Assembly (NCBI GenBank): GCA_963755715.1 | Contig: CAVWLW010000073.1 | Coordinates: 64,001-128,000, forward strand | DNA length: 64,000 nt | Source: an uncultured delta proteobacterium | GTDB taxonomy: Bacteria > Desulfobacterota > Binatia > UBA9968 | Direction: 5' to 3' | Part shown: positions 9,019 to 63,264 of the stretch, piece after piece | Numbering within the stretch: position 1 is the stretch's first letter | Layout: each line of letters begins with the position of its first letter | Notes under the pieces: model-generated | Database searches by the model: none | Told to the model about the DNA's origin: nothing | Seen by the model: only the letters and a program-made list of their open reading frames with translations | Made by a program: the position numbers and the translations under genes

Positions 9019-9768
9019 TTAACGCACCGCCTCAAAGGCCATCGATTCCCAACTGTTGATCAGCCAAAGATCCGAGCCTTCGTTGCGTGTACGAATTTCA
9101 ACCTGGCGGAAAACGGGATCGGTCTTCTCGTCAACACGGTATTCGGTGATCTGCCTGAATCCCGCCAGTTCGAAACTCTTGCGTAGCGTTGCTGGGTCGT
9201 AGAGGAACTGATGACCCCAATCACGGACTTGGCGGTTAAAGATATATGCACCGGTCACGGGACTCTCGGGCCAGCCATGGAATCGCATCTTCGCCTCCAT
9301 GAACCGCTTTGCGTCGGCATCCGGGTTTTCTCTTAATAATTGAACGAATTTTGCCAGATTTGGGGATACGATGCGCAATTTTCCACCTGGTGCAAGTACG
9401 CGATAGCACTCCTTTAGCATTGCTAGACCGCCTTCCCAAGGGACAGCCTGGATCATATGCTCGCTAAAAATGTACTGGAAGGATCCATCTGGGAATGGAA
9501 ATGGTTTGGTAGCATCGACGTAGACCTCCTCACCGGTGGGGAAAATATCGGTATTCAACCATTCCGTCGGGTCGTTACCGCCAGCTCCAAGATGCAGCTT
9601 GCGAATCGAGTGTGATTCGAGATAATCGCGAATGACTCCTGGGTCCCTGATCTCGCGCCGATAAAAGTTGTTCGCTATGTTTCGGACATTGGTTATGGCC
9701 AGTGAGGCAATGCATGCGATCATGGCCAATAAAAACCACCAGAACCAGTTTGCTTTTGTGAATTTCAT
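9019..9768 (-). CDS. SAM-dependent methyltransferase-domain protein with N-terminal TM anchor
   Basis: KLHLGAG, WLNTD, FPFPDGSFQYIFSEHMI, ECYRVLAPGG. Confidence 0.8.
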   Translation of the reverse strand: MKFTKANWFWWFLLAMIACIASLAITNVRNIANNFYRREIRDPGVIRDYLESHSIRKLHLGAGGNDPTEWLNTDIFPTGEEVYVDATKPFPFPDGSFQYIFSEHMIQAVPWEGGLAMLKECYRVLAPGGKLRIVSPNLAKFVQLLRENPDADAKRFMEAKMRFHGWPESPVTGAYIFNRQVRDWGHQFLYDPATLRKSFELAGFRQITEYRVDEKTDPVFRQVEIRTRNEGSDLWLINSWESMAFEAVR

Positions 9769-9859
9769 CGCTGCCGAAAGAAGAGAACATTTTCTGGATT
9801 GCGATACCGGCGACCACTTTACGCTGTTCTTAGGTCTAATTTAAATTCCGAGTAATCGC

Positions 9860-10849
9860 TTATTTTAAACCCAAGCATTGCGTCTTCGCCGGCCCTGCGT
9901 TCGCGTTTTCTTGATCGATGAGAAAAAGTTCGTTGGCCCGGGCGAAGCTCATGAGATAGCGTCCCATCACAAGCATCTGGGTGTTGTATTCCATCAGGCA
10001 TCTTCGCTTGTTCGCTAATTCCTGATCCGATAGGGCCAATGAGATCCATTCTGATCCCTCATCGGGAAAGCCCTCGGGAGGATTTAGCCGGGCTCCCATG
10101 CCTGCCCCACTGCCAACCGGCCACTGGCGAAAGTGAACTAAGAAATTGAGGACCTTGGGATCAAACGTCGGATAGTTCTTCCTATATGTCTTTAGGGACT
10201 TGCTAACAAAAAAGTAGGTTGAACAATGATCAGGGTGTTGATCTCTTGAATCAGCGACCGCAATAAGCGACGGATGAAAGTCCAGGAGCAATTTTTCTAT
10301 TTCTCGCTTCACGTCCTCGCCGTTAAATTCTATATTCGGCAGCAACGTATCGTCGACCTGAGGCCGATCGTCTAGCGTAAAAGGAGAGCGAAAATAGGGG
10401 CGCCTGTCAATCCAATGCTTCTGCAGGAGATTGCGTAGCCCACCATCCGGAAAGTTCAAAAAAACTACATCCTCCTTCTTCATTCCCAGAGCGCGAAGCG
10501 CTTGACGCGCTTCCTTTTTGCGCAGCTTTCCATAGTTGCGATAATCCTGTGCAGTGGGGCGAGCTATCCGGGTTTCCTTTTCGACCCCTTCGGGAAAACC
10601 GTCGCCGCTGGTCATGAACACAACTTTCACCGATCCCCCGAGGCTGAGCACCCGCTGAATAAGACCTGCGGCTGCCAGACTCTCATCGTCTGGATGCGGG
10701 GAAAAAACCATGAGTCGGGTGTTCTTAGATAGAAATGGCTCAAGACGCTGCGGTGCGTCTGCTCCGTGTGCGTAAGGAGTTGGCAACAGCGCACAAACAA
10801 GGAAACATAGCAGATATCCTCGCCATGGACTCGACCATTGATTTCTCAT
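9860..10849 (-). CDS. PIG-L/LmbE family deacetylase with signal peptide
   Basis: FSPHPDDE, VFMTSGD, LNFPDG and DQHPDH metal-binding motifs. Confidence 0.9.
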   Translation of the reverse strand: MRNQWSSPWRGYLLCFLVCALLPTPYAHGADAPQRLEPFLSKNTRLMVFSPHPDDESLAAAGLIQRVLSLGGSVKVVFMTSGDGFPEGVEKETRIARPTAQDYRNYGKLRKKEARQALRALGMKKEDVVFLNFPDGGLRNLLQKHWIDRRPYFRSPFTLDDRPQVDDTLLPNIEFNGEDVKREIEKLLLDFHPSLIAVADSRDQHPDHCSTYFFVSKSLKTYRKNYPTFDPKVLNFLVHFRQWPVGSGAGMGARLNPPEGFPDEGSEWISLALSDQELANKRRCLMEYNTQMLVMGRYLMSFARANELFLIDQENANAGPAKTQCLGLK

Positions 10850-11237
10850 TTGTTGATTTCGCCTCTCGATCCAATAAGTCTTAAAATGTCGATCTCCTGA
10901 ATAGTAGCTCCGTATATCATAATCGGCGAACCGACCAGAAATAGCGATGAATGGCTCGTTCGAGCCTCATTATGAAAGATTTTGATGCGCTCTGAACAGG
11001 CGAGCGTCAAGCTCATGCCGCTAGCGAGTTGGATCACCGGGCTCGGGTAACGTACCAGAATTTAAAATGGTGGATTTAACAACTGGGCTCAATCGCCTGC
11101 GGCTGTATGCATAATCATAATAAAGTTGCGCGCAGAGTCAATTCGGAAAGCATGATAAAAGATCCAACCGGCATACCGTTCCGAAGGAATTCAGTACCGC
11201 ACTGAAGATCGTAAGAATCGTAATATTTCGATAACGA

Positions 11238-13172
11238 TTATCCAGCCATCGCGGCGACTGCGTTTTGCCCAGGAACGCCAAGCCCACGTCGAGCCAACTC
11301 AGGCACAGCCGTCACTTCCACGATGGAGGCGGGCCCGTTGCCATTGGTCCGCACCAGAAGCTGGCGAGAATGAAAGGGACGCAGTGTCGCGCGATGGCCC
11401 ACACTGAATACCGTCGTTCCCGCGAGCCGTTCGCGCACCAGTCGATAAAGCCGTGCCTCCGTTGCCTCGTCAACCGCCGAGGTCGCCTCGTCGAGAAAGA
11501 GCCAATCGGGTTTCTGGACCAGCGCTCGAGCGAAGGCGATGCGCTGCTGCTCGCCCGGGGAGAGTTGGAGCGCCCAATGGCCAACCTCGTCGAGTCGAAC
11601 GACTAAGTCACGGAGTCCCACGGCCTCCAAAGCCTCGCGCACTGTCACGTCATCCACCCCACCCGCCGGCATCGGATAACTCACCACTTGCCGAAGTGTG
11701 TCAATCGGCAGGTAGGGCTTCTGCGGCAGAAAGAGGACTTGGGCGCCGCTGGGTCCGCGGATCTCGCCATGCCCAAACGGCCAGATGCCGGCGACCGCGC
11801 GGAACAGCGTACTCTTTCCCGAACCGGAAGCTCCTCCGAGGAGAACTGTGTCTCCACGCAAGATCGAGAGATTCACATCCGCGATAAGCGGCTGACCATC
11901 GGGTAGATAGAGATCCACACCCTCAACTGTCAGATGCATGGCGTCTCCGTCGACGCGCCGGACGCCATCGCCAGTCGCCGCCTGGATGCGCACGCGGTCA
12001 AGCGCCTGCTCGAAACCGGAGAGCCGCTCAACCACCGCGCACCATTCAGCGATCACCTTATACGAGTCGATAAAAAAGCTAAGCGAAGCCTGTACCGCAC
12101 TGAAAGCGCCGATGGTTTGTATGAGCCCACCCAGAGTAAGATCGCCGCTGAAGTAGCGCGGCGCCGCGACAAGCGATGGGAAAATCCAAGCCGCTTGTTG
12201 GTAACCCGAAGTGAAGTAGGTCAGCCGCTTCTGACGGCGCATGATGTCCCACCAGTTCATCACCACCGCCTCGAACCGTTCCCGAAAACCACGGAGCTCG
12301 TCCGCCTCGCCCCGGTAGAGCGCCACTCCCTCGGTGTTCTCCCGGAAGCGTACCAGGCCGAACCGGAAGTCGGCTTCACAACGCTGCTTGTCGTAGTTTA
12401 GCCGGACGAGCGGACGGCCAATCCAGTGAGTGAGCCAAGTGCCGGCGATCGCGTACAAGATCGCCGCCCATACCATGTAGCCGGGCAGCATAATGGAGAA
12501 CCACCCGCGAAGCGGAACGGTGAGCGTTCCGGACAGCGCCCAGAGGATCGCCACAAAGGCAACCAAAGTTACCAGCGCGCGCAGGCCTCCGATGACAAGC
12601 GTGAGGGTATGAGAAATGAGCAGGTGAACGTCTTCAGCGATGCGCTGGTCGGGATTGTCCGTTTCATGCGCCACGAGTTGCATCCGATAGTAAGCGCCAT
12701 CGGCCAGCCAAGCGCGAAGATAGCGCTCGGTAAGCCAGCGCCGCCAGCGGATCTCGAGCATCTGGCTCAGATAAAGCTGGTAGACAGCGAAAAAGATGAT
12801 AAGGACTATAAGCCAGGACAGACCGATCAGCTGTTGGAAGAACAGCGCATGGTTCTTATCCTGCAGGGCCGTGTAGAAGGCGTTGTTCCACCGGTTAATG
12901 AGAACACTCATGTGGACCATCGCGAGAGTGAGTGCGACCACGACGACGACCAGCCCCCAAGCCGCCCAGCGGTCCTCAGAGGACCAGTAGGGTCGAATCA
13001 TGTCCCATGCAGTCGGGAGCAATTGCCGCAGGCGAGTTGTGGTTGAATCTTCGGTTGGGCTGGGACTGGCGATTTCGCCATCGGTCGAACTTTGAACGCT
13101 GCCTGCAGGCTTCTGCTGATCGCCAACGGCAGAATTTTTTTGCTGCTTTCCGTTATCCAGCTGCCTGCGCAC
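11238..13172 (-). CDS. Fused ABC transporter permease/ATPase, YddA/BacA(Rv1819c)-like (ABCD family)
   Basis: DNPDQRIAED, EADFRFGLVR, Walker A GASGSGKST, signature LSPGEQQR, Walker B WLFLDEATSA. Confidence 0.92.
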   Translation of the reverse strand: MRRQLDNGKQQKNSAVGDQQKPAGSVQSSTDGEIASPSPTEDSTTTRLRQLLPTAWDMIRPYWSSEDRWAAWGLVVVVVALTLAMVHMSVLINRWNNAFYTALQDKNHALFFQQLIGLSWLIVLIIFFAVYQLYLSQMLEIRWRRWLTERYLRAWLADGAYYRMQLVAHETDNPDQRIAEDVHLLISHTLTLVIGGLRALVTLVAFVAILWALSGTLTVPLRGWFSIMLPGYMVWAAILYAIAGTWLTHWIGRPLVRLNYDKQRCEADFRFGLVRFRENTEGVALYRGEADELRGFRERFEAVVMNWWDIMRRQKRLTYFTSGYQQAAWIFPSLVAAPRYFSGDLTLGGLIQTIGAFSAVQASLSFFIDSYKVIAEWCAVVERLSGFEQALDRVRIQAATGDGVRRVDGDAMHLTVEGVDLYLPDGQPLIADVNLSILRGDTVLLGGASGSGKSTLFRAVAGIWPFGHGEIRGPSGAQVLFLPQKPYLPIDTLRQVVSYPMPAGGVDDVTVREALEAVGLRDLVVRLDEVGHWALQLSPGEQQRIAFARALVQKPDWLFLDEATSAVDEATEARLYRLVRERLAGTTVFSVGHRATLRPFHSRQLLVRTNGNGPASIVEVTAVPELARRGLGVPGQNAVAAMAG

Positions 13173-14263
13173 TAGTCACCTCCGCAGATTCCTTGTGTAG
13201 TCACTTTTCCGTTCGGCGATTCGCCGATTTCTCGTAACAAGACCGCCAAAGTAGCTGCTCGTGCCTGTCTGTTGGAGACGACTGAGCCCGCTGTGATACA
13301 CACGGCATCCCACAGAGGATTCGCGCTACTATCTACGGTTTTCCGCCAATCAAGTCTTTCGAGGAGCTTAAGTTTTCTTTGCCAATCGTAAGGATATTTT
13401 TCGAGCAACGTTCTTCCGACGCCTCCGAGAGCACGCAAAACGACCGCATGAGTATTGATTTTCTCTTGACGGAGTTCGGAAGCGCTAAGTTCTCCACTTT
13501 TGACTTTCTGCCAGTCACCAATGATCTTTGAAAGCTCTGTCCAGTATTCGACAGCCCTCTTGAGAATTTCTGCGTAGACCGGTGATCCCTGTTCAGCGAT
13601 TTTTTTACCCAGCAATTCTTCATTCGCTTCGTATAAGGCGGAAATGGTAAAAAGCTTAGGAGACCTCCGCGGAATCGTTACCTTCTCTTTCTCCACCATG
13701 TCCCGGAATACGTCGACCTGCTCGGCCAGCTCCATTGTGAGCGCGGAAAGGTTATCTCGACGATCATAGAGCATCCCTAGCGATTTTGACGTCTGCTGCA
13801 CGAATCGATTTAAATCTGAGAACATCTGCTGAAGCCGTTCCATACTTTCCGTCTCAAAGAGAAGCACCGAGATTTTTTCCTTCCCAAGCGCAGGATTCTC
13901 CTTGAGTGCCGCAGCAATCGCCGCGCACCGATGCTGGCCATCGTTGATAATGAACTCCACGTTTTCGAGCTCCATCTCTAAAGTTCCAACTTCGGCGTTC
14001 TCAGCTGAAGAGACGAACTTTACCGGACACGAATAGGACGCAGTGATGGACGAAAACAGGTATCCGTCCCCATTTTCGAGGATGTACCTCGTGATGTCTG
14101 GAACTCTCGCCTTGTTCAGAACTCGTTGCGCCCGCAGCTCCGGCGTGCACTGTTCCCAATCATCGAATTTGAATAAATGAGGAATCTCTGAAAGCGGGAC
14201 CAGCAGCGAATAATACTGACGCCCGCCCATGTTTCCCCTTATTACAGGAAAAGAAAGTTTCAT
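13172..14263 (-). CDS. dndB: DNA sulfur modification protein DndB (DGQHR-domain DNA-binding regulator)
   Basis: 363 aa. FPVIRGNMGGRQYY, RAQRVLNKARVPDI, YLFSSITAS, INDGQHR, QQMFSDLN and KLFTISALY motifs typical of DndB. Confidence 0.88.
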   Translation of the reverse strand: MKLSFPVIRGNMGGRQYYSLLVPLSEIPHLFKFDDWEQCTPELRAQRVLNKARVPDITRYILENGDGYLFSSITASYSCPVKFVSSAENAEVGTLEMELENVEFIINDGQHRCAAIAAALKENPALGKEKISVLLFETESMERLQQMFSDLNRFVQQTSKSLGMLYDRRDNLSALTMELAEQVDVFRDMVEKEKVTIPRRSPKLFTISALYEANEELLGKKIAEQGSPVYAEILKRAVEYWTELSKIIGDWQKVKSGELSASELRQEKINTHAVVLRALGGVGRTLLEKYPYDWQRKLKLLERLDWRKTVDSSANPLWDAVCITAGSVVSNRQARAATLAVLLREIGESPNGKVTTQGICGGD

Positions 14264-14290
14264 TTGGTAACCACCATTGTTGCAATCATC

Positions 14291-14410
14291 CCAGCTGTCG
14301 ATCGTTTAAGCATGAGCTGATTTCTAACAGTCGACCAGCTGTTTGTCAATAACCTATGAGCTGTAATATTAATTTATAAGAGCTGATGTATGGAAATCAG
14401 TACAGCTGTA
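14291..14410. repeat. Phased array of six (C/G)AGCTG(A/T) boxes at 22-bp period over the dndB promoter
   Basis: AGCTG starts at 14293, 14315, 14337, 14359, 14381 and 14404, separated by non-repeated AT-rich spacers. Confidence 0.85.
14321..14349 (-). promoter_or_regulatory. Sigma70-type promoter for dndB
   Basis: Minus strand TTGACA (14349-14344), 17 nt, TAGAAA (14326-14321) preceded by an extended TG. About 55 bp upstream of the dndB ATG. Confidence 0.65.
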
Positions 14411-14492
14411 TTGAGTATGAAATTCAAACGACATGAATTCTTAAGATATTGATTTATAATACATTTTATCTAAACGCCGCGAACATGCCGCC

Positions 14493-14670
14493 ACGCCACG
14501 AAAAATCCTACCGATCAGCACGACCAATCTCCAAGACATTTTCAACGCCCGTGGGCCGCCTGGCTGCGCCCGCACCACCCGATCGCAAAAATCGGTTATT
14601 CGATTTTTATCTACGACTTGAGCGGGAACTCGGAGGGATTGATGGAATTGGAGCAGACCTGTGCTGTGTC
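14493..14670 (+). pseudogene. Relic 3' end of a GT-C glycosyltransferase paralogous to 7223..8900
   Basis: Translates TPRKILPISTTNLQD...(frameshift)WLRPHHPIAKIGYSIFIYDLSGNSEGLMELE, versus APRKILAISAYNLQD...WLWTRRPIAKIGYSIFVYDLTNDQEGIIKLE at ~8700-8880. Confidence 0.8.
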
Positions 14671-14708
14671 GCAGGACTGTCACCGAGAGATGAAGTCTCA
14701 CAGTCGCG

Positions 14709-15599
14709 CTAGAACCAATCTCCTAGCTGCCAGGAATAACCCGCCTCGTTCATGAGCTTTCGGGTACTCTGCCACACTTTGTATTTCTCATACATCGACA
14801 GGTCCGACTTCCAGACCTCGGGTCGGGCTTTGCCGATAAAACCGCGAGGCAGCTTTGCCACTGGTCCCGTGCGTGCCCTGACCTCGCCATACACCGGAAT
14901 CGGGGTGCCGCCGGTTTCCATCACGTCGGCTTTGTTGCTGTCGATTGCGAGGTTTATGGCGTCGTCGCTCCAGGAGATACCGAGGAATTTCGCCAAGCCC
15001 TTTAGAGTATCGAGGGGAGAATTCCAAAGGTCCTCATAGCGGATCTCGTGGAATTCCTCCGACGATAGCTTTTTTGCTGCGGCCTTGACTGCTTCGACGT
15101 GCTGGACCCACATGGCCGCGGCCACTTTCGCGCTGCCGGGCGCCCAACTCATGCCCCAACTCCGGGAAGCGGTCATGAGCGAAGCGACCACGTCTCGACA
15201 ATCGCGCATCAAATGAATGAATCGGCTGTCGGGCAGCAGATCCTTGATCTCGGGAATGTACAAAGCATGCGACGGGGTCTTCTCCAGAAACAATTCTTCT
15301 GGTTCCAAACCATCAACGATGGGTTTGAGTAAAGCCGCTAGATAGTTTTTTAAAATGGCCCGAAATTCTTCCTCGCGAAAATAGGCCTGCGGACCCGCTG
15401 CATGACCCAGTCCACCGTTGAGGTGCCGCGTCTTCTGATCGTTCCACGACCGGAGCTGCGGCCCGACATATAAGCTGAAAAAGTGTGATTCTTCCCCGGA
15501 ACGAATCCTTGGATGGCTCGCCAAAAGTTTCTGGAGCCAGGTGGTGCCGCTGCGCGGGCAGCCGACGAGAAACACCATATTCTTGCCTCTGTACTCCAT
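14709..15599 (-). CDS. Sulfotransferase family protein
   Basis: 5'-PSB loop GCPRSGTT, EKTPSH, HLMRDCRDVVAS, IRYEDL. Confidence 0.92.
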   Translation of the reverse strand: MEYRGKNMVFLVGCPRSGTTWLQKLLASHPRIRSGEESHFFSLYVGPQLRSWNDQKTRHLNGGLGHAAGPQAYFREEEFRAILKNYLAALLKPIVDGLEPEELFLEKTPSHALYIPEIKDLLPDSRFIHLMRDCRDVVASLMTASRSWGMSWAPGSAKVAAAMWVQHVEAVKAAAKKLSSEEFHEIRYEDLWNSPLDTLKGLAKFLGISWSDDAINLAIDSNKADVMETGGTPIPVYGEVRARTGPVAKLPRGFIGKARPEVWKSDLSMYEKYKVWQSTRKLMNEAGYSWQLGDWF

Positions 15600-15638
15600 C
15601 GCTACTAGATCAAAGTCAAATGCGCCATCGACGTAAAT

Positions 15639-16496
15639 CTATCGCGCCGGCCTTTCGGCCGGCGCATAAAGAAACCCGGGATATCTTTCCTGTACTCCAC
15701 CGGTTTTTTGCGCGAGGGCAAAAATAGTGTCGCCGCGTTCCCTGGCTTTTAAAAAGCCGAGACTCATAAGGCTCCCGATTTTGAGCAGAGCTCTCATCTG
15801 AAGCGTCAATAGACGTCCGAATTGTTGATCCTGATAAACATCGACCGTCTTAAACTCACTGTTGGTGAAGCCGCAAAGCTTGAGCAGCTCTCTCACTTCC
15901 CAAGGGACATATTCATGGTTGTGACGATCGGTACTGGGACGGCGTTGGTAAACTGGATAGATATTCGGATTGCCGCCGCGCAGAATCCTAAGGACGGACC
16001 GAACCGAAGCGCAATTTGGGGTCGACAATAGAAGATAGCCCTCCGGCTTGGTAATCCGATTAATCTCGGACATCGTCTGCAACGGATCTCGGCTAAGATG
16101 CTCTAAGACTTCCGTAAAAATTACGACATCGAATGATCCATCTTGATACGGAAATGGTCCCTCGATGTCGAAACGATCAACGTGAAAAGAATACCTCTCT
16201 CCATTCCTGGCATTTTGGAGGAAGTTATCCTCGCTTGCGGGTTTCCGCTCCTGAAATGGCTCCGTTAAAGTAATATTTGTCGCCCCAAGAATATCCCTAA
16301 GAGCGGGTACTAGGCTTCCGTAAGACCCCACATCGACGATATGCATCCCCGGCTGGATTATAGCCTGAAGCAAAGATACCGTCTCAGCAAAACGATTCAT
16401 GTGAACTTTCAGGTAATCGTTCACATAGGCCATCGAATTATACTCTGGCGCCAGCAATGCGGTTTCGACGGCTCGTCGAAGCTCAAAAAAGTTCAT
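15639..16496 (-). CDS. Class I SAM-dependent methyltransferase
   Basis: VDVGSYG, FPYQDGSFDVVIFTEVLEHL, LLLSTPN. Confidence 0.85.
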   Translation of the reverse strand: MNFFELRRAVETALLAPEYNSMAYVNDYLKVHMNRFAETVSLLQAIIQPGMHIVDVGSYGSLVPALRDILGATNITLTEPFQERKPASEDNFLQNARNGERYSFHVDRFDIEGPFPYQDGSFDVVIFTEVLEHLSRDPLQTMSEINRITKPEGYLLLSTPNCASVRSVLRILRGGNPNIYPVYQRRPSTDRHNHEYVPWEVRELLKLCGFTNSEFKTVDVYQDQQFGRLLTLQMRALLKIGSLMSLGFLKARERGDTIFALAQKTGGVQERYPGFLYAPAERPAR

Positions 16497-16806
16497 TGAA
16501 TTGGACGCTGGTGGAGATTATGAACAATCGACCGGATTTAGCAGTGTCCGATCATTTTTGAAAAAAGTTGTCTTGCCGTCTATTGAATAAATTCAAGGAT
16601 TCGGTCGATTGTGCTATATCAATCAGCATTTCAATTTATGCAAATATAGCATAACCGCGTAGATAGAGACATGACCTTCCAGGAGAGATACCAAAACTTG
16701 TTAAGATCTAAACATCGCTCATCCGCTTTAAACTCGTTGGGAGTTGTCGTGCTACCAACAATGCAGAACTGCGGAGACTTCGATATTAAACTTAGAAAGC
16801 ACCCCT

Positions 16807-18072
16807 ATGTCCGCCTGGCTGCATCTACCTGACGCTCAATCTAGCCGGCAGATCGCCATTATCTGCGATACGGTCCCATATCCAACGCGGTCTGGGGATA
16901 ATCAGCGCATCGCCGAACTCATTAGCGTTTTAAGGGAACAAGGATGGTACGTGCATCTTGTGCTTTGCGGCCTGATCGAGCGCAGATTTAGAAAAACTTG
17001 TCGCTCGCACGTGGATGCCTTGCACATATACAGTGGCAGGGGACTGAAAACTCATGTTCGAAATGTCGTGCGCCGCACCGTCCGGTTGCTTGATCGGGCC
17101 GGGAAAATCGTCAGCATACCGCCAATAGAAACAATTGCTAATCGACTGCTCGGTCGTTCTATTTCGCCGTTCATTATTAACTATTGGCAACGTTATCCAA
17201 AAGGGCTAAGCGATTTTGTCGCGGAACTAAAGGAGCGTTTCCCATGGAAGGCCGTGATTGTTGAATATATTTGGCTATACCAATCAACAGACAAACTGAA
17301 GAATAGCATCTTTCGATTGCTTGACACACACGACATCCAACACAAACGAGTTGAGGAATTCGCTTCCCGAGGCATGGTGTTTCCTTTACAGATTACCCGA
17401 GACGAAGAACGCCGAATCTTCAACCAGTTCGACGCCGTAATCGCCATTCAAGCTGTAGAAGCGGAAGTAATAAGAGAGATGTGTCCGCAATTAAGAGTGC
17501 TGACTGTAGGTTCGTCGGGATCTTTCCCGACTGTTGAATCGATCAGCCCGGTGGACGGGCGCATACTCTACGTAGGCGGTTATAACGGCGCCAACATCGA
17601 CGGACTGCGTCGCTTCTTTGACTTTGTGTGGCCAAAGATTCTCCGACAAATTCCACATGCAAAACTGCACGTCTGCGGTCATATTTATCGAGCATTTGCC
17701 GGGCAGCGATTCGAAAATGTGAAGTTTCTCGGACACAAAGAACGCCTTGAAGAAGAATATGGCCAGGCTGCCGTAGTCATAAATCCTGCATGGATTGGCA
17801 CCGGCTTAAAGATCAAAACTGTTGAGGCACTGGCACGTGGCAAGGCGCTGGTTACGACGCCGAAGGGAATCGAAGGGCTACCCGACGATGTCGAGCAAAG
17901 TAGTCGCGTGACCGATGACGATGACAAATTTGCCACCGAGGTCATCCGGCTGCTCACCGATCATGGTTGGCGAGAACGTCTATGCGCCTCCGCGGCCACA
18001 TTCGCTATTAACCGCTTGAACAAGCCCGCCGTTTATCGAGAACTTTTCGACTACCTTGACGAACACAAATGA
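16807..18072 (+). CDS. Glycosyltransferase family 4
   Basis: PYPTRSGDNQRI, GTGLKIKTVEALARGKALVTTPKGIEG. Confidence 0.85.
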   Translation: MSAWLHLPDAQSSRQIAIICDTVPYPTRSGDNQRIAELISVLREQGWYVHLVLCGLIERRFRKTCRSHVDALHIYSGRGLKTHVRNVVRRTVRLLDRAGKIVSIPPIETIANRLLGRSISPFIINYWQRYPKGLSDFVAELKERFPWKAVIVEYIWLYQSTDKLKNSIFRLLDTHDIQHKRVEEFASRGMVFPLQITRDEERRIFNQFDAVIAIQAVEAEVIREMCPQLRVLTVGSSGSFPTVESISPVDGRILYVGGYNGANIDGLRRFFDFVWPKILRQIPHAKLHVCGHIYRAFAGQRFENVKFLGHKERLEEEYGQAAVVINPAWIGTGLKIKTVEALARGKALVTTPKGIEGLPDDVEQSSRVTDDDDKFATEVIRLLTDHGWRERLCASAATFAINRLNKPAVYRELFDYLDEHK

Positions 18073-19238
18073 AAATCTTGGTTTTGAGCAAACGTCAGTA
18101 CATGGGAAAAGATCTTCTCGAGGACCGCTTCGGCCGGTTTTGGGAACTGCCTTTGGAATTAGCTCAGCTTGGGCACGATGTGCAGGGGCTTGCTCTCAGC
18201 TATCGGCAGCGACCCGGGGGGACGTTCCTCGATGGCGACGGCTCATCCGGCAGCGGTGTGACATGGAATTCGGTCAATTTGTTAAACGGATATCTCCCGC
18301 AAATCGAGCGATATACGAGATGGGCACTGCAAATATCTCGGGAATTTCGTCCAGATATTATCTGGGCCTGTTCAGATGTCTATCATGCCATCTTCGGGGG
18401 TTGGCTCGCCAAACGTGTCGCATCGCGATGCGTGATCGATCTTTACGATAACTTTGAAGCGTTCAAAGCCAGTCAAATTCCCGGTGTTTTGCCGCTTTTC
18501 CGGCGCGCCGTAAAAGCGGCCGACGGCGTTAGTGCTTTCAGTCAACGATTAGCGGATCACGTCTTGCGGAGCTACCTGCGGTCGAAACCGATATCGGTTA
18601 TCGAAAGCGGTGTTCGGCCCGATCTATTTTATCCACGAGATCAAACCGAATGCCGCCAGCATCTGGGCCTACCACAACACGCCAGGATTATTGGCACAGC
18701 CGGGGCACTGGAACACAGTCGCGGTATCGAAACTCTCTTTGAGGTTTTCGAGCAGCTCTCCGGCCAAGTCGACAATCTTCATCTGGCGCTGGCCGGTCCA
18801 CGCGAACACGGGTTAGCAATTCCCACCGGGTCGCGAGTTCACGACTTCAAAGAACTACCGCACACGGAGGTGCCGGTTTTTTACAATTCATTGGATGTGG
18901 CAGTGGTCTGTTACCGCCACTCAGCACAAGGCGAATACAGTTTTCCTCAAAAAGCCTATGAGATCATCGCTTGTCGCGTGCCGCTAGTTGCCGCCGCGGT
19001 GGGTTCGATGAATGAATTGCTACGAAATTATCCCGACATGCTTGTACGAGCCGGAAGATTCGGTCCATTTAGCGAACACACTCAAGCACCAATTGCGCAC
19101 AAAAAGAATAGTCGAGACGAAGGCGTTCCCTCATGGGCGGATTCAGCAAAACAACTGAGCGATTTTTTTCTGCGGATCGTCGGATGGCGACTCCCTATCC
19201 GCCATGACGCAAAATTCAATAATCAGACGGCACGCTAA
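18069..19238 (+). CDS. Glycosyltransferase family 4
   Basis: LAQLGHDV, RPDII, FPQKAYEIIACRVPLV. ATGA overlap with the previous gene. Possible frameshifts near the C-terminus. Confidence 0.82.
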   Translation: MKILVLSKRQYMGKDLLEDRFGRFWELPLELAQLGHDVQGLALSYRQRPGGTFLDGDGSSGSGVTWNSVNLLNGYLPQIERYTRWALQISREFRPDIIWACSDVYHAIFGGWLAKRVASRCVIDLYDNFEAFKASQIPGVLPLFRRAVKAADGVSAFSQRLADHVLRSYLRSKPISVIESGVRPDLFYPRDQTECRQHLGLPQHARIIGTAGALEHSRGIETLFEVFEQLSGQVDNLHLALAGPREHGLAIPTGSRVHDFKELPHTEVPVFYNSLDVAVVCYRHSAQGEYSFPQKAYEIIACRVPLVAAAVGSMNELLRNYPDMLVRAGRFGPFSEHTQAPIAHKKNSRDEGVPSWADSAKQLSDFFLRIVGWRLPIRHDAKFNNQTAR

Positions 19239-61142: not shown

Positions 61143-63264
61143 TTACTTCAAAAGCGTAAATTGAAACGTCGCCCCGGGACCGTCATTGGGCACGGCCCAA
61201 AGCCGTCCGCCGTGGTTCTCAACAATCGAGCGGCTGATCGCCAGTCCCATCCCCATTCCCTGCGACTTAGTGGTGTAGAAACTATCGAAGATCTTGTCGA
61301 GATTCTGTGAATCGATTCCAACACCGGAGTCTTGGACAGCGACGAGCACTTTGTCGGATTCGTGCGCAGAGGATCGAATAATCATCTCTCGCGGTCGGTC
61401 CGTGACAGTATTCATGGCTTCGATACCGTTCATCACCAGATTAAGAATCACTTGTTGCAATTGGATTCGATCGCCCGATACACGGGGGAGACTGGCCGCC
61501 AGGTTCATCTTCAGCACCACGCCGGATTTTTGTATTTCGCTGTGCGTCAGACTCACAACTTCTTGGATGACTTCGTTAATGTCCAGAAGCGTCTTCTCAG
61601 TGTCGCCTTTTTGGACCAATGCACGGATGCGTCTGATCACATCGCTGGCCCGGTTGCCGTCTCTGACGATTCGCGATATCGCATCCCGCGCTTCGTCTAA
61701 GTTCGGTGTTGAATTGGCAAGCCAGCGGAAACAAGCGTTAGCATTAGCAACCACGGCCGCAAGCGGCTGATTGATCTCATGAGCGATCGACGCGGTCAGT
61801 TCTCCCATGATCATAACCCGCCCTACGTGCGCCAGTTCGCCTTGCGCCTCGCGCAGAGCGTGTTCCGCGCGGCTGCGTTCCGCGCGCGTGCGCAGCGCAG
61901 TCACCCCATAGGCCAGATTATCCGCCAGCTCCGTGAACAGCTCCACTGCGCGTTCATCGAAAGCACTCGATTGTTCAGCGTAAAGAGTGAGGGCGCCAAA
62001 CGGTTTGCCATCAGATATCAACGGCAGTGAGATGTTCGAACGGTAGCCCCGTTTCAGGGCCTCATCCCGCCACGGCGCGATACTCGAATCGGTTTCAATA
62101 TTCTTGGTCCACGTAGGTTTGCCGGTCCGGATCGCAGTGCCGGTAGGCCCATGACCTCTTTCAGTATCTTCCCAGGTAGCCTTGACGCTTTCTACGTACC
62201 CTTCGTCGTATCCTGCTTGCGCCACCGGCCGAATCGACTTTTCCAAGTCAAGCTCCCGGTAACCGACCCACGCCATCCGCAGTCCGCCGGCGTCCACGAG
62301 AATACGACAGGCCGCCTGCAAGAGTTCGTATTCATCCGTGGCATGAACCAGAGCCTGGTTGCATTGGTAAAGAGTCTGCAAGGTCCGGTTCAGCCTGGCC
62401 AACTTGTCTTCGGCTTGTTTGCGCTCCGTTACGTCGAGCAGCGCACCGGAAAACCTGACTAAGGTACCGTCCGTATTCCGGATCGCTTCGGCCATGCTTT
62501 GCACGAAGCGAATCGAGCCATCAGGGCGGATGATGCGATATTGGATATTGTAAGGCCTACCGTCGCGAACCAGCTGATCGTAACGTTCCATCGCATATTG
62601 TCGATCTTCGGGATCAACAATGCGCTCGACAAAATCTTTGCGAGCCCAGGCGCCGTTTTGCGGATTCAGGCCCAAGATGCGAAATATCTCATCTGACCAA
62701 CGGCTCGCCCCAGTGAAGCAGATCGATTTCGTAGCTTCCCAGATGGGCGATCCTCTGGGCCTGCTTGAGCTGGGCTTCGCTTGATCGGAGCGCTATCTCG
62801 GCTTCTTTTCGCTCAGTGATTTCTCGCTAGCAGCTCTTGGTTGGCGCGCTGAAGCTCCACGGTGCGCTCTTGCACCTTCAATTCCAGCTCGTCGCGGGCC
62901 TGCCGAAGTGACTCTCTGGCGCGCTTCTGACTTGCGCTCAACCAACTGATCGAGGCCGCAGAAAGGAAAAATACAATCATGCGCGGCAAGTCCTCCGCGC
63001 TCAAGGCTCCAGAGTATAGTAGGGCGACGTAAAGTGATAGTCGATCAGCCCGACTGAAAGTGAACTCGCGAGCAATCCGGGTCCAAGCCCGCCCAGCCAG
63101 CTGCTGAGCACGACTGCACAAAAGAACAATGAGTTGGGTGTGGGATCAAAGTAGGTCCTCAGCAACTCTTTGATAATAAGCGCGGTGGCGACAGATAAGA
63201 CAGCGAGCCCGTACCTGAGAAGGATCGACGTGATGCGCCGTTTTGGCGTCCCAAACTTCGACAT
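61143..63264 (-). CDS. TM-PAS-GAF sensor histidine kinase (frameshifts ~63020, ~62830, ~62720)
   Basis: DUF4118-like N-terminus (GGLGPGLLA), PAS, GAF (GHGPTGTAIRTG), SIAHEINQP, HATPase. Confidence 0.85.

Follow-up and report, generated by a model that had tools for sequence, protein, structure and literature searches.

We analyzed a 64,000-nucleotide stretch of the genome of an uncultured delta proteobacterium (Desulfobacterota; Binatia; UBA9968; NCBI GenBank assembly GCA_963755715.1, contig CAVWLW010000073.1, positions 64,001 to 128,000), hereafter the window. It encodes a protein of the DndB family, and directly upstream of this gene is an array of six short boxes that share the core AGCT and recur about every 22 bp. 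The array overlaps the predicted dndB promoter. Downstream on the same strand is a gene for a fused ABC transporter, the start of which overlaps the dndB stop by 1 nt; thus, dndB and the transporter gene probably form one operon. The pairing of the two genes is conserved among orthologues from the same genus. The features of the locus are listed in Table 1.

Table 1. Features of the dndB locus, with positions counted from the first letter of the window.
Feature	Position	Strand	Sequence	Remarks
Fused ABC transporter gene	11238-13172	minus		ABC_membrane_2 / SbmA-BacA-like membrane domain and ABC ATPase (Pfam)
dndB-family gene, 363 aa	13172-14263	minus		Predicted ParB-like N-terminal domain, DGQHR at residues 108-112, helical C-terminal domain
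Box 6, promoter-proximal	14291-14298		CCAGCTGT	5′ leader, ~30 nt upstream of the ATG; AGCT at -33; kept in orthologues
Box 5	14313-14320		TGAGCTGA	Directly 3′ of the -10, on the predicted transcription start; CAGCTC column conserved (19-region alignment)
Predicted extended -10 (TG + TAGAAA)	14321-14329	minus	TGTTAGAAA	TAGAAA at 14326 to 14321, 17 nt past the -35
Box 4	14335-14342		CCAGCTGT	Within the 17-nt -35/-10 spacer; GAGCTG column conserved (19-region alignment)
Predicted -35 hexamer	14344-14349	minus	TTGACA	TTGA conserved at at least 80% over 19 loci; same site recovered in locus L003
Box 3	14357-14364		TGAGCTGT	Just upstream of the -35; kept in orthologues
Box 2	14379-14386		AGAGCTGA	Upstream of the -35; kept in orthologues
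Box 1, distal	14402-14409		ACAGCTGT	Likeness to orthologous loci stops about here

By its profile scores, the gene product is a genuine DndB-family protein, as a first-pass annotation made from the sequence alone had proposed. It matches TIGR03233 with 344.8 bits (cut-off 328), PF14072 with an e-value of 2.5e-105 (352.7 bits, cut-off 29.1) and the PADLOC DndB model at 9.7e-109, and its DGQHR motif is intact. Residues D108, G109, Q110, H111 and R112 are invariant in an alignment of more distant relatives (A1, see below); in a second alignment of 71 rows (A2), the same holds for G109 and R112 and very nearly for D108 and H111. The same annotation had placed the gene in a phosphorothioation operon, and this part did not hold. 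The next gene is the ABC transporter gene, and in the genome, which is 93.6% complete, DndC has no match, DndD has only a 21-bit match below the cut-off, and DndE has no match to a model that likewise matched no control genome. The 12 genomes of the genus that encode DndB are likewise without a DndC match. A dndBCDE operon was thus rejected for this locus.

The first-pass annotation had reported six phased copies of AGCTG with unique spacers, and we confirmed these letter by letter. The copies start at 14293, 14315, 14337, 14359, 14381 and 14404, giving spacings of 22, 22, 22, 22 and 23 bp. The pattern AGCTG-N17-18-AGCTG occurs five times in the window, every time inside the array, and its mean count in dinucleotide-preserving shuffles is 0.23, with none of 100 shuffles reaching five; the array therefore exceeds chance expectation, as had been claimed. 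Only the boxes are repeated. The array spacers are unique, the 22-bp units as a whole do not recur, and Tandem Repeats Finder detected no repeat at 14200-14500. Across the complete assembly (7,407,624 bases in 76 contigs), this is the sole chain of at least four AGCTG/CAGCT or SAGCTS boxes (S, G or C) at 21-23 bp. The scan that the annotation had suggested for further arrays, which would mark a regulon, hence found no second array in this 7.41-Mb assembly.

Two weaker chains were the only others in the genome (G000): three SAGCTS boxes at C33:69142-69190 and four bare AGCT at C54:186650-186720. Both lie within open reading frames. The first was rejected as an operator, as it reflects coding periodicity, with GAAGAGCT[GC] (GAAGAGCTS) repeated every 21 bp in a 2.6-kb frame.

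The promoter geometry is as first described. One box (AGCTG at 14337) falls between the -35 and the -10; of the others, three precede the -35 and two (14315 and 14293) follow the -10, with the predicted transcription start at ~14314. Variants of a TGnTAnAA -10 element are present in the orthologues. Conserved sites that cover the -35, the -10 and the start of a regulator's own operon are placed as operators are, and the predicted promoter gives the array this arrangement.

We identified dndB orthologues with 84-94% protein identity in 11 of the 30 other genomes of the genus. Upstream DNA is available for 10 of the 11 loci, the remaining one being at a contig end, and all 10 have four to seven AGCT boxes at 21-23 bp before the ATG. 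In an alignment of 19 upstream regions from the Binatia clade, conservation of at least 80% is limited essentially to the columns of the AGCT boxes, of TTGA in the -35 and of a T in the -10, and the spacers between the boxes have diverged. BLASTN likeness among the orthologous intergenic regions ends with the distal box, some 147 nt before the ATG, and the gene upstream of the array is not conserved among the same-genus loci. TIGR03233 had no match in a sample of 300 other genomes from the phylum, and within that sample the module is therefore confined to this genus. In two same-genus genomes the dndB gene is broken, in G029 (L013/L021) by a TGA and a frame change and in G003 (L014/L020) by a frame change; the ABC gene of G029 is split too.

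Beyond the genus, a subclade with 48-59% identity was found among 50%-identity protein representatives. Its alignment (A1) was used as a query and gave, among the matches listed, 80 metagenome loci, five of which were dropped since the match did not start at residue 1. In total we analyzed 95 loci (75 metagenome, 9 genus, 3 further genome and 8 plasmid loci), 87 of them with at least 150 bp of upstream DNA. A chain of at least four AGCT boxes, allowing one skipped box per chain, precedes the DndB homologue at 48 of the 87, down to ~48% protein identity. Conservation upstream of homologues was the check that the first-pass annotation had named beforehand, and the boxes are indeed kept from 94% to ~48% identity. 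Three more of the 87 loci (L074, L078 and L081, which form one clade) have at least four GACTC/GAGTC boxes at 21-22 bp instead, with the -35 directly after a box, as GGACTCTTGAC. The same period with a different box is as expected if the specificity co-evolves with the protein.

An unbiased search with all 4-mers recovered the same pattern. A strict chain of at least four copies was found at 27 of 67 metagenome loci, and the word is AGCT or overlaps it in 25 of these and is GACT or ACTC in the other two; by comparison, 4 of 2000 random 250-bp windows of the Binatia genome have such a chain. We placed 90 proteins in a quick, midpoint-rooted maximum-likelihood tree with SH-aLRT support values, where a single 68-row clade (support 98) contains the arrays. 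In detail, 44 of its rows have at least four boxes, five have three boxes, three have GACTC boxes, 10 have none and six have too little upstream DNA. A further 15-row clade is without arrays, as are the proteins of seven canonical loci, from Massilia, Rhizobium NXC14, Pseudomonas aeruginosa, Nonomuraea, Arthrobacter, Methylobacterium and E. coli (the first three annotated as dndBCDE, the other four unannotated in the plasmid collection). At the E. coli locus (L123, NZ_OL790696.1), TACGTA-type boxes occur at -82, -51, -37 and -13 within the region from -83 to -13 from the dndB ATG. They include one TACG-N10-CGTA and fit the operator described from Salmonella (see below), with irregular spacing and no 22-bp phasing.

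The best tblastn match in plasmid records, at 48% identity, is a solo dndB (product WP_118852925.1) on a 15-kb plasmid of Neorhizobium sp. SOG26, a cultured strain. It has neither dndCDE nor an ABC gene beside it; the genes nearby encode a TIR-domain protein, a CopG protein and N6-methylases. Seven AGCT boxes precede this dndB, at -172, -150, -129, -107, -62, -40 and -17. Thus the hosts of the array include Candidatus Binatia metagenome-assembled genomes and an alphaproteobacterial plasmid, the flanking genes differ, and no gene other than dndB is constant beside the array. Chance, or the functionless remnant of a degenerate tandem duplication, has the AT-rich, low-complexity look of the surroundings in its favor and nothing else. 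Given the shuffles, the negative Tandem Repeats Finder result, the retention of boxes while spacers diverge and the recurrence at 48 of 87 loci, we regard this explanation as negligible; for the duplication remnant in particular, the repeat search and the conservation pattern led to its rejection.

From 259 boxes of 47 non-redundant arrays, the box is an 8-bp palindrome, A(48%)-S-AGCT-S-T(57%), with AT-rich and otherwise unspecific flanks. The hexamer GAGCTG was counted 97 times, CAGCTC 64, GAGCTC 63 and CAGCTG 27. The AGCTG given as the repeated unit in the first-pass annotation is present in all six boxes of the window, but the conserved core is AGCT flanked by S. Adjacent boxes are 22 bp apart in 151 of 191 intervals, 21 bp in 13 and 23 bp in 27, and a further 21 intervals are double (42-46 bp). 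Neighboring GAGCTG and CAGCTC boxes alternate in 60 pairs and do not in 23, a difference that none of 2000 within-locus shuffles reached. The alternating orientation is a hint only, as related loci inflate the figure and distant clades use the full palindrome GAGCTC.

With so short a core, many proteins could read the boxes, and a host regulator or nucleoid protein might bind them and leave DndB as merely the regulated gene. That no DNA-reading motif was identified in DndB would fit this. However, the array accompanies the DndB clade in unrelated hosts with differing flanking genes, no other gene is constant beside it, and there is no second array in the genome of the kind a host regulon would have. 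We therefore consider another trans-acting factor quite unlikely.

The AlphaFold2 model of the window's DndB, built from the 71-row alignment, has a mean pLDDT of 94.4. No PDB entry matched it in Foldseek at an e-value of 0.001 or below; the best matches were CTP-bound ParB N-domains (e-value 0.011, probability 0.97). VIA-align gave Z scores, middling by the tool's own note, of 7.9 for PadC (rmsd 2.9, 100 aligned), 7.7 for pNOB8 ParB-N (rmsd 4.5, 168 aligned), 6.0 for sulfiredoxin, 5.9 for KorB (PDB 8qa8; rmsd 3.4, 94 aligned) and 4.6 for SspE. The model thus supports a ParB-like nucleotide-binding fold of the N-domain, and the matches to ParB-type domains and sulfiredoxin are consistent with the relation to the ParB/Srx fold stated in the first-pass annotation. 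No clear structural neighbor was found for the helical C-terminal half, and a sequence search for a solved DndB structure returned only two weak, unrelated matches. Prediction of a two-copy complex scored 0.78 against 0.00 for the best control, with at least 93% of contacts common between runs and a partner pLDDT of 83; the mark used for this score is attained by 1 of 23 proteins whose solved structure is a single chain, against 20 of 30 whose solved structure is a pair. The predicted interface is formed by the N-domain (residues 6-21, 53-74, 86-93, 108-112 (DGQHR), 128-136 and 145-166), and this prediction may reflect solved ParB dimers.

A fold of this kind raises the question of whether the array is a parS- or centromere-like loading site for a nucleotide-gated clamp. 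DndB would load there, close as an N-engaged dimer and slide or spread, with promoter control as a side effect or an addition to marking, bridging or sensing. Multi-copy phased sites do recall plasmid centromeres. The ParB-like N-domain, the predicted symmetric dimer through the nucleotide-binding domain including DGQHR, and the binding of both ATP and GTP by a DndB-like protein, reported in a preprint (bioRxiv 10.1101/2025.10.10.680097), are all in keeping with a clamp. Against this, the array always coincides with the promoter that immediately precedes the dndB operon, a box falling between the -35 and the -10, and the genome has only one array. No ParA-type or Rep family was detected by Pfam among the ten ORFs scanned from 9019 to 19238, so that dndB in the window has no adjoining ParA-type partner, and on the 15-kb Neorhizobium plasmid partition is presumably the task of a separate gene pair, annotated as "AAA family ATPase" and "ribbon-helix-helix domain-containing protein". 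Clamp loading is, in our view, an unlikely role for the array.

DndB has been known only for autorepressing phosphorothioation operons, and a single operator, that of Salmonella, has been footprinted. The DndB (DptB) of Salmonella enterica Cerro 87 autorepresses dndBCDE through two TACG-N10-CGTA palindromes in its own promoter, as shown by DNase I footprinting and mutagenesis (PMC4507180). For S. lividans, an inverted repeat of another kind is described, along with effects that modified sites close to the promoter have (PMC6186775). Other articles place DndB in the ParB superfamily and question transcription control as its only role (PMC10853773; PMC3632139; PMC12065111). The protein of the window is of the same family as the Salmonella protein (TIGR03233, PF14072, DGQHR), its gene is likewise first in the operon that it would control, and the sites in both cases lie in and around the regulator's own promoter, with very short 4-bp cores at fixed spacing. 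Unlike the two palindromes of Salmonella, the arrays reported here consist of four to eight single AGCT-core boxes with a strict 22-bp period, and unlike dndBCDE, the operon is without dndCDE and has an ABC transporter as its cargo. Autoregulation by DndB is thus known, whereas neither this operator architecture nor a dnd-independent cassette seems to have been described in the literature searched. In line with what the first-pass annotation had supposed of the architecture, we found no description of a phased multi-box operator for DndB, or of solo DndB cassettes, in the openly readable literature, supplements apart.

The response of S. lividans dndB expression to modified sites near the promoter (PMC6186775) is also what would favor a different reading, in which the AGCT boxes are DNA modification sites, for example of an AGCT-specific methyltransferase, and the array is an epigenetic promoter switch read by DndB-type proteins. 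Some relatives in the same clade, of 470-560 aa, have C-terminal extensions of reader type, with a SeqA_C match in P0125 (1.1e-24) and a weak Mrr_N match in P0126. These extensions hint at DNA-modification readers fused to DndB. The Neorhizobium dndB, moreover, adjoins N6 DNA methylase genes. The DndB of the window has no reader domain, however, and AGCT is about as frequent in its genome (3.65 per kb) as base composition predicts (~3.8 per kb). No methyltransferase specific for AGCT was found either, although no search aimed at one was made. Modification alone would also leave the strict 22-bp phasing unexplained, and we consider such a switch very improbable.

Several well-known systems resemble the locus in part. 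KorB of plasmid RK2, a ParB-family CTP-dependent repressor, recognizes single palindromic operators of 13 bp with its helix-turn-helix and is able to exert its effect from a distance. It shares the ParB-fold nucleotide-binding N-domain and the role of promoter repressor that we propose for DndB here, but it is not known to use a phased multi-box array; no helix-turn-helix was seen in DndB. The centromere-like operator arrays parC of plasmid R1, bound by ParR, the heptads of pSM19035, bound by the omega protein, and sopC of F, bound by SopB, are multiple short repeats at fixed spacing around or over the promoter of the binder's operon, as in our case. Their binding is cooperative, filament-like and autorepressing, by ribbon-helix-helix or helix-turn-helix ParB proteins that have a partition ATPase. 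In contrast to these contiguous repeats (units of 7, 11 or 43 bp), only 6-8 of every 22 bp are specified at dndB and no partition partner is adjacent. Plasmid iterons, direct repeats of ~22 bp at an origin beside the rep gene that are bound by Rep initiators, are similar in period and in having several copies, but most of the iteron unit is conserved, whereas the spacers here are unique and the array is a promoter. Centromere and iteron arrays conserve the whole unit and adjoin a partition or replication gene; at dndB only the box of 6-8 bp is conserved, and we rejected this class for the array. BrxR/CapW repressors, which have a WYL domain, precede variable defense cargo. The dndB loci are alike in having a repressor gene and operator upstream of interchangeable cargo, including, in relatives, a dCTP deaminase and other defense-type genes, with autorepression proposed here; they differ in having a ParB-like fold rather than a winged helix-turn-helix with WYL, and in the operator architecture.

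Because the array covers the dndB promoter, and because the box changes in one subclade with the period unchanged, we think that it is probably the multi-site operator through which the dndB-ABC transporter operon is autorepressed, with DndB dimers binding to it cooperatively. We infer from co-occurrence and geometry that DndB, encoded directly downstream, is the binder, and likewise the repression, the cooperativity and the nucleotide control; DndB is the most likely binder because dndB is the sole constant partner of the array across hosts and cargo. An occupied array would exclude RNA polymerase, since the boxes span the -35, the promoter spacer, the -10 and start, and the leader, and autorepression would follow. 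DndB dimers, joined via their ParB-like nucleotide-binding N-domains, would occupy successive boxes and touch one another, such that the 22-bp period would be fixed by the protein lattice and not by the spacer sequence, and binding would be cooperative. By analogy with Salmonella DndB, binding of ATP or GTP may release the protein and derepress the operon; Xia and co-workers are said to have described modulation of DndB by ATP in 2019.

A number of observations weigh against this operator reading. The link between the array and DndB in this clade comes from co-occurrence, related loci are not independent, so that the locus counts overstate the support, and the switch from AGCT to GACTC is a single evolutionary event. 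The Salmonella precedent covers the principle and not the site, because TACG-N10-CGTA is absent at this promoter. The motif occurs once in the window, at 62193 and hence a long way from dndB, and at least one occurrence arises in 28 of 100 shuffles; an operator of the Salmonella type was rejected here. Neither a helix-turn-helix nor any other DNA-reading element was recognized in the DndB model. The first-pass annotation took the period to be two helical turns along one face; the 22-bp period stands, but it corresponds to ~2.1 turns of 10.5-bp B-DNA, and on relaxed B-DNA the boxes drift by ~34 degrees per step. For all of them to point to one side of the helix, the DNA would have to be kept at about 11 bp per turn.

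The promoter is predicted from sequence, and a consensus promoter scanner did not list it, because that scanner demands T at position 6 of the -10. Over the 47 arrays, a promoter-like site (a -35 with at least 5/6 matches to TTGACA and a -10 with A at position 2) lies inside 35, with exactly one box in the promoter spacer in 31, counts that come without a shuffled control. The dndB of relatives is covered, with 88-99% likeness, by contigs from RNA libraries of four soil runs (three studies), and two of these contigs span the junction of dndB and the ABC gene. One contig extends 165 nt upstream of a relative's ATG, beyond the predicted start, which could be read-through or library DNA; these contigs show no transcript ends and DNA carry-over is possible, so nothing follows from them for the transcription start. 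The array region itself had no RNA-contig cover at 88% likeness.

Both loci with a broken dndB (G029 and G003) retain seven phased boxes, which is neutral if the breaks are recent. Ten rows of the array clade show no array within 260 bp. In three of them (L060, L062 and L065) a small ORF lies between the promoter and dndB, and L062 has boxes at the operon promoter beyond this ORF, from -483 to -373. These three loci score only a two-box chain further upstream, to which L062 adds two in-phase boxes by eye. Six array-less rows (L079, L084, L085, L086, L088 and L118) are left unexplained.

At none of the loci of the array clade is dndC downstream. In the Binatia clade the cargo is the SbmA-like ABC transporter, and elsewhere it includes a dCTP deaminase (L073; PDLC02373, 8.5e-153), a deaminase-kinase (L070) and a SUKH-4 protein (L078). 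In L052-L062 and L082 the cargo is a family of about 790-824 aa (L052:4108-6477, L057:4144-6579, L061:1768-4143, L062:4122-6515 and L082:4296-6770) that has no match in Pfam or PADLOC. Its L052 and L082 members share 28% identity (e-value 1e-92), and DxGxG and GG motifs are present. HATPase_c_3 is found on 30% of the members of one atlas cluster neighboring this family; it may be a GHKL-type partner, and the HATPase_c_3 link is a lead only. The sister clade without arrays adjoins HKD-SNF2, type IIG and type IV restriction-type genes. The array and dndB thus behave as a portable regulatory cassette before differing cargo, with no tie to DNA phosphorothioation.

This places a DndB clade outside any dnd system, before varied cargo, in at least two phyla and on many soil metagenome contigs, and the array gives it a precise candidate DNA target, boxes of A-S-AGCT-S-T spaced by 22 bp, for which GACTC is a natural variant with an unchanged period. 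The array further suggests a way for nucleotide-binding proteins of ParB fold to repress, namely through multiple phased sites, and this links the ParB/KorB clamp field with defense-island regulation. More tentatively, and with considerable doubt, a large DndB clade may have left phosphorothioation altogether to become portable nucleotide-gated repressors of ParB fold, forming a lattice of dimers on 22-bp phased mini-palindromes that gates costly or toxic cargo (transporters, dCTP deaminases and the GHKL-like ~800-aa family) and releases it when the ATP/GTP state changes. Were this true, phage attack would be one example of a trigger of such release, and the DndB cassette would be the ParB-family counterpart of BrxR/CapW-type defense regulators, with a centromere-like operator.

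We also examined the wider context of the dndB-ABC module. Past the ABC gene are genes for a PIG-L deacetylase and a methyltransferase, and upstream of dndB is a sulfotransferase gene on the same strand. Altogether the neighbors (9019-10849 and 14709-19238) encode the PIG-L deacetylase, two methyltransferases, the sulfotransferase and two glycosyltransferases, that is, sugar- and sulfate-modifying functions; in G028 the PIG-L gene instead adjoins dndB directly upstream. A stretch of ~60 bp upstream of the array (14560-14625) matches, in inverted orientation, DNA that elsewhere lies ~120 bp downstream of the ABC gene (L023:4945-5009, L047:3312-3369 and L027:7437-7493), and perhaps it serves the module as a boundary or terminator. 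Finally, a conserved hairpin-like leader directly upstream of dndB occurs in long-form relatives of 485-516 aa (L085, L086 and L088, at ~-70 to -30 relative to the ATG) as well as in the clade with GACTC boxes (L074, L078 and L081, ~-60 to -30), where it may be a 5′-UTR structure.

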